From Escherichia phage CJY920: a stretch of 64,000 bases of DNA. Positions 38,414 to 39,227 of this stretch are shown here, piece by piece. The stretch lies in the sequence record PQ349265.1; one strand, written 5' to 3'. The position numbers and the translations under genes are program-made. Under the pieces are notes generated by a model. That model had not been told where the DNA came from, ran no database searches, and saw only the letters and a program-made list of their open reading frames with translations. Position 1 is the first letter of the stretch. Each line of letters opens with the position of its first letter.

Positions 38414-38674
38414 TTATTCGACCTTCTTAAATTTGCAATTGTCAAAATGGTATCTTTTAGCGTGAGACTTATCCATGATTTTAGAACAGTGCGGGCATTT
38501 TAATTTTTCTCTGCTATGAGATACACCCGTGATAACTTTGCATTTATCGCCGTGGTATTTTCCATAATTTCCTACATCACATATAATTCCGCAATGCGGG
38601 CAATTTCTCTTTTCGACTTTTGCAAGACCTTTAGATAGTTTATTTAAATACTTTTCGTATTTTTTGGGGGTCAC
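38414..38674 (-). CDS. tandem CPHC zinc-ribbon ORF lacking an ATG start; probable frameshifted C-terminal domain of the upstream HNH gene
   Basis: Two CPHC...H..C repeats; begins at GTG; frame open back into the HNH ORF across a C5A6 tract. Confidence 0.45.
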
Positions 38675-39227
38675 TTTTAAGCTCAGACCAGAAATCTTTC
38701 ATCTGTTTAGAACATCTTTCTTTATATTCTAACATTTCGTTTTCTGATAACGATTCCAAATATTTCACTGAAGCTTTTCGAATATTTGCATTAACTTCTT
38801 TTCTCTTTTCATCTGTCCATAAAGATTTAGTTTTTTTAATGCCTTTTCCGGCTTTTTTAATTCGTTCCTGTTTTAAATTTGGTGATAGATTCGCCCAAAA
38901 CTTTTTAATGGTTTCTGATCTAATTTTAGATGTTTCCTCTTTAATCCATCCGTAATCTTTACTTACAATTCTCTGCTCTTTTGTACCCTTGGAGAATTTT
39001 ATTAAGGCATAAGCCATTTCAGAATTTCGGTGTATTTTAAAAAGAAGCTCATGTGCAAAATAGTGTTCTCTTGCTGTCAGTAAAACCTTGTTTTCTCTAG
39101 AATCATCTCCTCCCATGGATTTTGGGACAATATGGTGTGATTCTGTGTAATAATCTAATTTTTTCTTATTAAGACCTCTTTTAAGAGATCTTTCTATAAG
39201 AGAGTTGTAAATTTTAGTATAATTCAT
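38640..39227 (-). CDS. HNH homing endonuclease-like protein (Mob-like), 195 aa
   Basis: [34 protein letters not shown] motif; lies between genes 13 and 14. Confidence 0.7.

Follow-up and report, generated by a model that had tools for sequence, protein, structure and literature searches.

A Mob-like free-standing homing endonuclease gene (HEG) of the HNH type, lying between genes 13 and 14 of Escherichia phage CJY920, has probably undergone a recent inactivating mutation. The gene appears as two open reading frames (ORFs), and this split is a specific one-base difference from homologous records rather than a chance pattern. Comparison with those records identifies the difference as a private insertion of one A, which extends a run of five A residues to six and cuts off the C-terminal fingers that presumably bind DNA. 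Judging by its sequence, the element is a HEG of a kind already annotated in related phages. The window, by which we mean the whole 64,000-nucleotide stretch that was analysed, is a segment of a T4-like (Tequatrovirus) genome; its best matches in the phage collections are ~96–98% identical, and none is identical.

Two reading frames between genes 13 and 14

Both ORFs lie on the minus strand. The first (38640..39227, minus strand) starts at an ATG and encodes a truncated HNH endonuclease of 195 aa, which corresponds to residues 1–188 of a 270-aa protein of related phages followed by an out-of-frame tail, IRKVFK, and which retains, besides the HNH domain, most of the helical repeats. The second (38414..38674, minus strand) is in the +1 frame, encodes 86 aa when read from its GTG, and corresponds to residues ~187–270 of the intact protein. 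It covers the final linker helix together with the two CCHC fingers (C25PHC28...H41...C45 and C60PHC63...H76...C80) and is 98% identical to the C-terminus of phage T6 ORF154. The two ORFs overlap at GACCCCCAAAAAATACG, one frame apart, and the overlap contains a C5A6 tract (38660..38670, minus strand, with C5 at 38670–38666 and A6 at 38665–38660), around which the minus strand reads GAC CCC CAA AAA ATA CG.

An earlier note on this DNA had described an HNH ORF and a CPHC-containing ORF separated by one frame at C5A6, and both the sequence and the ORF coordinates bear this out. It was also correct that the second ORF has no ATG, that it starts at GTG and that its frame stays open upstream: the +1 frame is open for 9 codons ahead of the GTG, and the ORF has no in-frame ATG ahead of finger 1. 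The further prediction, that deletion of one A would fuse the ORFs into a protein of about 270 aa, agrees with what relatives encode, namely a 270-aa HNH-plus-zinc-finger protein. With one A removed, the window does yield a 270-aa ORF, and at the sites that vary among eight aligned copies this repaired ORF differs from T6 ORF154 in one residue, R47K.

When a 91-bp query centred on the tract was used, all 44 matching records carried C5A5, not C5A6, every match being 90 bp long, and 39 of the 44 encode the protein as a single 270-aa ORF. This 813-bp ORF lies between genes 13 and 14 in T6, ESh36, pSe_SNUABM_01 and most carriers, where it is annotated as a homing or HNH endonuclease, and nucleotide alignment of the relatives' copies with the window shows exactly one extra A at the tract. 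T6 ORF154 (AXN58195.1) and its copies in ~40 Tequatroviruses (among them ESh36, pSe_SNUABM_01, fPS-2 and CrRp10) occupy the same 13/14 site and are 97–98% identical to the window gene at the nucleotide level; they carry C5A5 and one 270-aa ORF, whereas the window carries C5A6 and two ORFs. The 270-aa form falls in a 50-member protein cluster, the listed members of which are found on >100 contigs. The A6 allele had no exact-pattern match in viral, genome or metagenome contig collections and was absent from E. coli complete genomes (megablast), and the 195-aa product had no match by exact look-up in a collection of 15 billion proteins. Codon variants among eight aligned copies of the gene number 13 synonymous and 6 conservative non-synonymous, the finger region included, a pattern of substitution that speaks for purifying selection across the entire 270-aa frame of the intact copies.

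Some copies carry frameshifts of their own. In those of phages F1, FN and SHFML-26 an A7 run at gene position 391 is reduced to A6, and in a Logan contig from run ERR8314753 an A6 run near gene position 370 is reduced to A5; each is a one-base frameshift, and the Logan copy additionally carries three extra nucleotides, in frame, at gene position 73. The F1/SHFML-26 and Logan frameshifts each split the gene into two ORFs that are annotated as 'hypothetical proteins'. The events in F1/FN/SHFML-26 and in the Logan contig are independent, and the A-runs concerned differ from that affected in the window.

The flanking genes both encode neck proteins. Gene 13 (39224..40153, minus strand) specifies 309 aa, and its equivalent in relatives is annotated as neck protein/gp13; gene 14 (37642..38412, minus strand) specifies 256 aa, its equivalent being annotated as gp14. 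The earlier note placed the element between two genes that are adjacent in T4, and this is supported by HEG-free relatives such as vB_EcoM_CE1 (CE1), in which genes 13 and 14 are one base apart (...GGT TAA T ATG...) and the empty junction includes GGTAGGTTAATATGGC. An empty junction like that of CE1 is present in at least 109 records, and of 499 Tequatrovirus-type records in which megablast matched the neck genes on either side, 46 carry the element.

Alignment of both junctions with the CE1 empty site delimits an inserted homing-endonuclease element of 810 bp (38417..39226, minus strand), and by junction arithmetic the in-frame copies of the element measure 809 bp. On one side the element adjoins the last sense codon of gene 13, on the other the original TAA-T-ATG junction with gene 14. 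It brings a new TGA to gene 13, whose old TAA (38416–38414) now serves as the stop of the endonuclease. At one end the TGA stop of gene 13 overlaps the ATG of the HNH gene (ATGA); at the other, the ATG of gene 14, at 38412, lies 1 nt (T) past the TAA stop of the zinc-finger frame, and an AAGG Shine-Dalgarno-like element falls within the 3' end of the insert.

The T4 late promoter consensus TATAAATA does not occur on the minus strand from 33447 to 46561. Since there is no late promoter in or just upstream of the element, the HEG presumably relies on a longer late transcript, and it is probably expressed from such read-through transcripts with translational coupling to gene 13 via the ATGA overlap.

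The last 24 nt of gene 13 (window 39227–39250) show 6 differences from HEG-free CE1 (~24420–24445), of which 5 are synonymous and 1 changes Phe to Val. These differences from the one empty site that was compared in detail may fit polymorphisms of the endonuclease target or of immunity, or else a co-conversion tract.

Domains and relatives of the intact protein

The Pfam HNH_4 model matched the 195-aa ORF at 26.1 bits and the 270-aa form at 24.4 bits (cut-off 22), and PHROG 655 ('homing endonuclease') matched the in-frame T6 copy across residues 1–267 (2.7e-52). Across 49 homologues, H31, H32, N46, H55 and H59 are invariant, and so are C244, C247, H260, D262 and C264; with neighbouring residues included, C244, P245, H246, C247, H260, F261, D262 and C264 are invariant or nearly so. 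Homologues at 30–57% identity carry HNH, helical repeats and 1–3 CPHC...(Y/W)HFDNC modules in one chain, and these comparisons show the ancestral state to be a single polypeptide. PF07460 (NUMOD3) occurs in the helical region of many homologues; the window protein had no NUMOD3 match at E ≤ 0.1, and its corresponding region is modelled as long helices.

An AlphaFold model was built on the 49-sequence alignment (mean pLDDT 88.7). Its HNH core consists of strands 28–32 and 47–51 and helix 52–66, with a block-mean pLDDT >93, and is followed by five long helices at 89–202 and by two beta-hairpin-plus-helix units with CCHC ligands, at 206–224 and 241–263. From sequence and model together, finger 1 (38540..38602, minus strand; CPHC-x12-H-x3-C) is predicted to have strands at 206–208 and 215–217 and a helix at 221–224, its block-mean pLDDT going from ~83 to 61. 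Finger 2 (38435..38497, minus strand; CPHC-x12-H-x3-C, ...RYHFDNC), likewise placed by sequence and model, has a predicted beta-beta-alpha fold with a block-mean pLDDT of 85–93 and is, of the family's C-terminal modules, the most conserved.

The 'zinc ribbon' label that the earlier note had attached to these repeats finds no support. Pfam zinc-ribbon models reached 14–19 bits against cut-offs of 27–34, and AlphaFold shows one CPHC knuckle plus a helix that carries the His and the Cys; as modelled, the units are beta-beta-alpha CCHC fingers rather than zinc ribbons. A Foldseek comparison of the whole AlphaFold model with the PDB returned nothing significant (best E = 0.23), the weak matches being to HNH domains (best: Cas8-HNH) and zinc-finger arrays, and neither the full protein nor the finger ORF had an NCBIfam match.

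A finger of the form CPHC-x(10-12)-(Y/W)HFDNC occurs in 1–3 tandem C-terminal copies in many HNH/NUMOD3 endonucleases. The CPHC...(Y/W)HFDNC repeat had no Pfam family above cut-off and no NCBIfam model. It could merit description as a nuclease-associated DNA-binding module, which would be a property of the family.

In tblastn searches, annotated mobE (RB55) was 32% identical over 85% of the query and annotated mobD (RB7) was 47% identical over the N-terminal 41% of the query. The DNA-binding end of I-HmuI, a phage HNH homing endonuclease of characterised structure, is a helix-turn-helix, not CCHC fingers. The window protein nevertheless resembles I-HmuI in its order of HNH catalytic domain, linker and DNA-binding region (cited in PMC2790892), and Mob proteins have a common N-terminal HNH and a protein-specific C-terminal, presumably DNA-binding, domain (PMC2790892). 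T4 MobE and MobD share with the window protein a homologous N-terminal HNH, an intergenic position between conserved genes and a sporadic distribution, and the 13/14 element is indeed free-standing, located between conserved genes and precisely absent from close relatives. The T4 Mob insertion site is nrdA/nrdB, whereas the window element is at 13/14; and nicking and homing have been shown for MobE and are predicted, by analogy, for the window protein. In the literature searched we found no account of a HEG between genes 13 and 14, and no measured endonuclease activity, target site or truncation effect for it from any phage.

A second Mob-like HNH gene is present on the plus strand (58583–59242), between gene 2 (DNA end protector) and gene 3. 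It encodes 219 aa and matches PHROG 655 at 2.9e-58. As the earlier note had claimed, this paralogue lacks the CPHC extension; it is 46% identical to the 13/14 protein over the N-terminal 116 aa. The gene is present in CE1 and absent from pSe_SNUABM_01, and is thus another HEG with presence/absence variation.

Origin of the extra base

A normal copy of this HEG encodes one 270-aa chain composed of an N-terminal HNH nuclease, four to five long helices (NUMOD3-like in homologues) and two C-terminal CCHC fingers. By analogy with MobE, I-HmuI and I-TevI, the fingers would bind the HEG-free 13/14 junction of a co-infecting phage as their target, the nuclease would nick or cut this junction, and repair would copy the HEG in. 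The insertion that turns A5 into A6 shifts the frame after residue 188 and leaves an HNH nuclease without fingers. The finger ORF is probably untranslated, because it could start only at a GTG that lacks a Shine-Dalgarno element, with no ATG in frame ahead of finger 1. From the same analogy, the truncated enzyme should lose site-specific binding and activity. Since the carrier genome lacks the target site, loss of the nuclease would cost nothing in single infection, and as no further defects lie downstream of the shift, the event is likely to be recent. The allele would represent an early degeneration stage of the HEG life cycle.

Three explanations had been offered in the earlier note, namely a pseudogenising indel, a sequencing error in a homopolymer, and programmed frameshifting or transcriptional slippage; the first two survive, and the third does not, given that the split is not conserved. 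The main rival to a genuine mutation is a sequencing or assembly error, which we consider possible though rather unlikely. On this account the phage is truly C5A5 and has an intact 270-aa HEG, the sixth A being a homopolymer miscall in the deposited sequence. A single base in a homopolymer is all that is concerned, A6 is a singleton against 44 records and is absent from all collections searched, the remainder of the HEG is undamaged, and similar homopolymer frameshifts are found in deposited relatives, for example in hoc of CE1. Six A residues, however, make a short run for the usual miscalls.

The quality of the rest of the sequence bears on the same question. We aligned the window to CE1, pSe_SNUABM_01 and vB_EcoM_P8 over 1–24001, 24790–52980 and 53539–64000, and no other frame-breaking one-base indel was found in a coding gene in these aligned regions. 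Other single-base differences were intergenic (40160 and 46572) or fell, towards the 3' end of the window, in the tRNA region and the divergent sequence next to it (62272–63713). The window contains 407 homopolymer runs of ≥5 and 71 of ≥6, of which the HEG has 8 and 4, respectively. The absence of any other frame-breaking indel in the aligned regions, where the rest of the 407 runs are free of such indels in coding sequence, argues against an error-prone assembly, and a lone random error would fall in the HEG only ~2% of the time (8/407 runs). This clean-assembly argument is weakened by the habit of submitters, who often mend frameshifts in essential genes but leave those in 'hypothetical' genes as they are. 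A real frameshift, on the other hand, would survive selection only in a dispensable, selfish gene such as a HEG, and because the frameshift is tolerated only in such a gene, a genuine mutation is favoured over a sequencing error. We infer that the phage DNA itself, and not just its assembly, carries the extra A.

The hoc gene of CE1 (6693–7822; window ~20437) has one A-run that is a base shorter than in the window (A6 against A7), which splits it into two annotated ORFs. This dispensable gene is intact in the window and in pSe_SNUABM_01, and the single-base difference here is a defect of CE1.

Full-length endonuclease could also be made from the A6 allele in small amounts if programmed or compensatory +1 slippage, by the ribosome or by RNA polymerase, realigned the frames; the allele would then be attenuated and not dead. 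We regard this as very improbable. The overlap does contain two perfect +1 re-pairing sites, CCC_C and AAA_A, but the presence of a slippery site is a trivial consequence of any homopolymer indel. AAA_A precedes AUA, and a shift there would restore the exact wild-type SDPQKYEK; a shift on CCC_C would give SDPKKYEK, a Q-to-K variant of the same length. AUA is a rare codon in E. coli, and T4-type phages supply their own AUA-reading tRNA-Ile. Appreciable slippage by bacterial RNA polymerase takes a run longer than six A's, so that the tract, at only 6 nt, is short for transcriptional slippage. The split arrangement occurs in 0 of 44 relatives, and the homologues at 30–57% identity are single-chain proteins. 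Folding of the RNA around the tract does not stand out from that of shuffled sequence (z = -0.94; 37 of 200 shuffles did as well), and no Shine-Dalgarno-like (AGGAG-like) stimulator lies upstream of the tract.

Rescue of this kind, at a low level and by accident, is mechanistically conceivable and has a precedent in 'saviour indels', in which low-level frameshifting compensates for the lesion, as documented for the G-run of the HSV thymidine kinase gene (PMC5009743). The likeness lies in a one-base homopolymer indel that is in principle partly rescuable by slippage (PMC5009743); the difference is that the window allele shows no evidence of rescue or of selection favouring the indel. We give little credence to the idea that slippage of tRNA-Lys on A_AAA_A, or of tRNA-Pro on CCC_C, keeps the A6 allele alive at trace level. 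If it did, the indel would act as an attenuator that keeps trace homing activity and lowers the nuclease load, and, together with the F1/SHFML-26 and Logan alleles, the A-rich gene would be a contingency locus by which the HEG is turned off and on. The programmed frameshifting or slippage envisaged in the earlier note finds neither a conserved split (44 of 44 records are C5A5) nor a stimulatory RNA structure.

Programmed recoding was rejected as a candidate on these two grounds, the unconserved split and the missing stimulator.

Least probable of all, in our view, is a functional two-piece endonuclease, in which the HNH and zinc-finger fragments are translated separately and cooperate. T4-type phages do have fractured genes whose halves are translated separately, gene 17 of the window included. 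Nevertheless, the GTG of the finger ORF is preceded by TCTGAGCTTAAAA, which has no AGGAG-like element, and there is no in-frame ATG; the arrangement is found in no relative, and nothing in the fragments suggests interaction domains. The split functional enzyme was rejected as a candidate, the start being a GTG without Shine-Dalgarno and the arrangement being unique among relatives.

Gene 17, which encodes the terminase large subunit, is itself fractured (33443–36295, minus strand). The ORF for its N-part (35402–36295) ends ...MIYIDE|CVAKDTKV...(41 aa)*, and that for its C-part (33443–34828) opens with ~107 aa ending ...NNVESHN|CAFIPNF.... The ORF in the middle (34816–35436) encodes a TnsA-like/endonuclease-I-like nuclease (PF08722, 8e-10). 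Each half seems to bear one part of a naturally split intein, of which the N-part is short and the C-part long, and a free-standing nuclease gene lies between them, an arrangement that matches the atypical 'Terminase' fractured gene/split intein of Dassa et al. 2009 (PMC2677866). Gene 17 is arranged likewise in CE1 and pSe_SNUABM_01, where it is annotated simply as two 'terminase large subunit' genes.

Annotation and life cycle of the element

The two ORFs between genes 13 and 14 are best annotated as one disrupted Mob-like HEG, not as an HNH protein and a separate zinc-finger protein. The locus is a copy, degenerate in an ordinary way or else mis-sequenced, of a Mob-like HEG that has been annotated before, and beyond annotation the split matters little.

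Loss of function in an endonuclease gene that persists has been seen before. I-TevIII, truncated in its T4 form and full-length in its RB3 form, provides the classic precedent for the degeneration of a HEG in T-even phages. It has been called a 'defunct' HNH homing endonuclease of the T4 nrdB intron, the gene of which persists (PMC2790892). I-TevIII is intron-encoded, whereas the window allele is free-standing and differs by a single-base frameshift. With this allele, three independent frameshift alleles are now present in one gene across ~40 phages, which points to HEG decay at homopolymer runs. These alleles are consistent with the cycle of invasion, fixation and degeneration that has been proposed for homing endonucleases.
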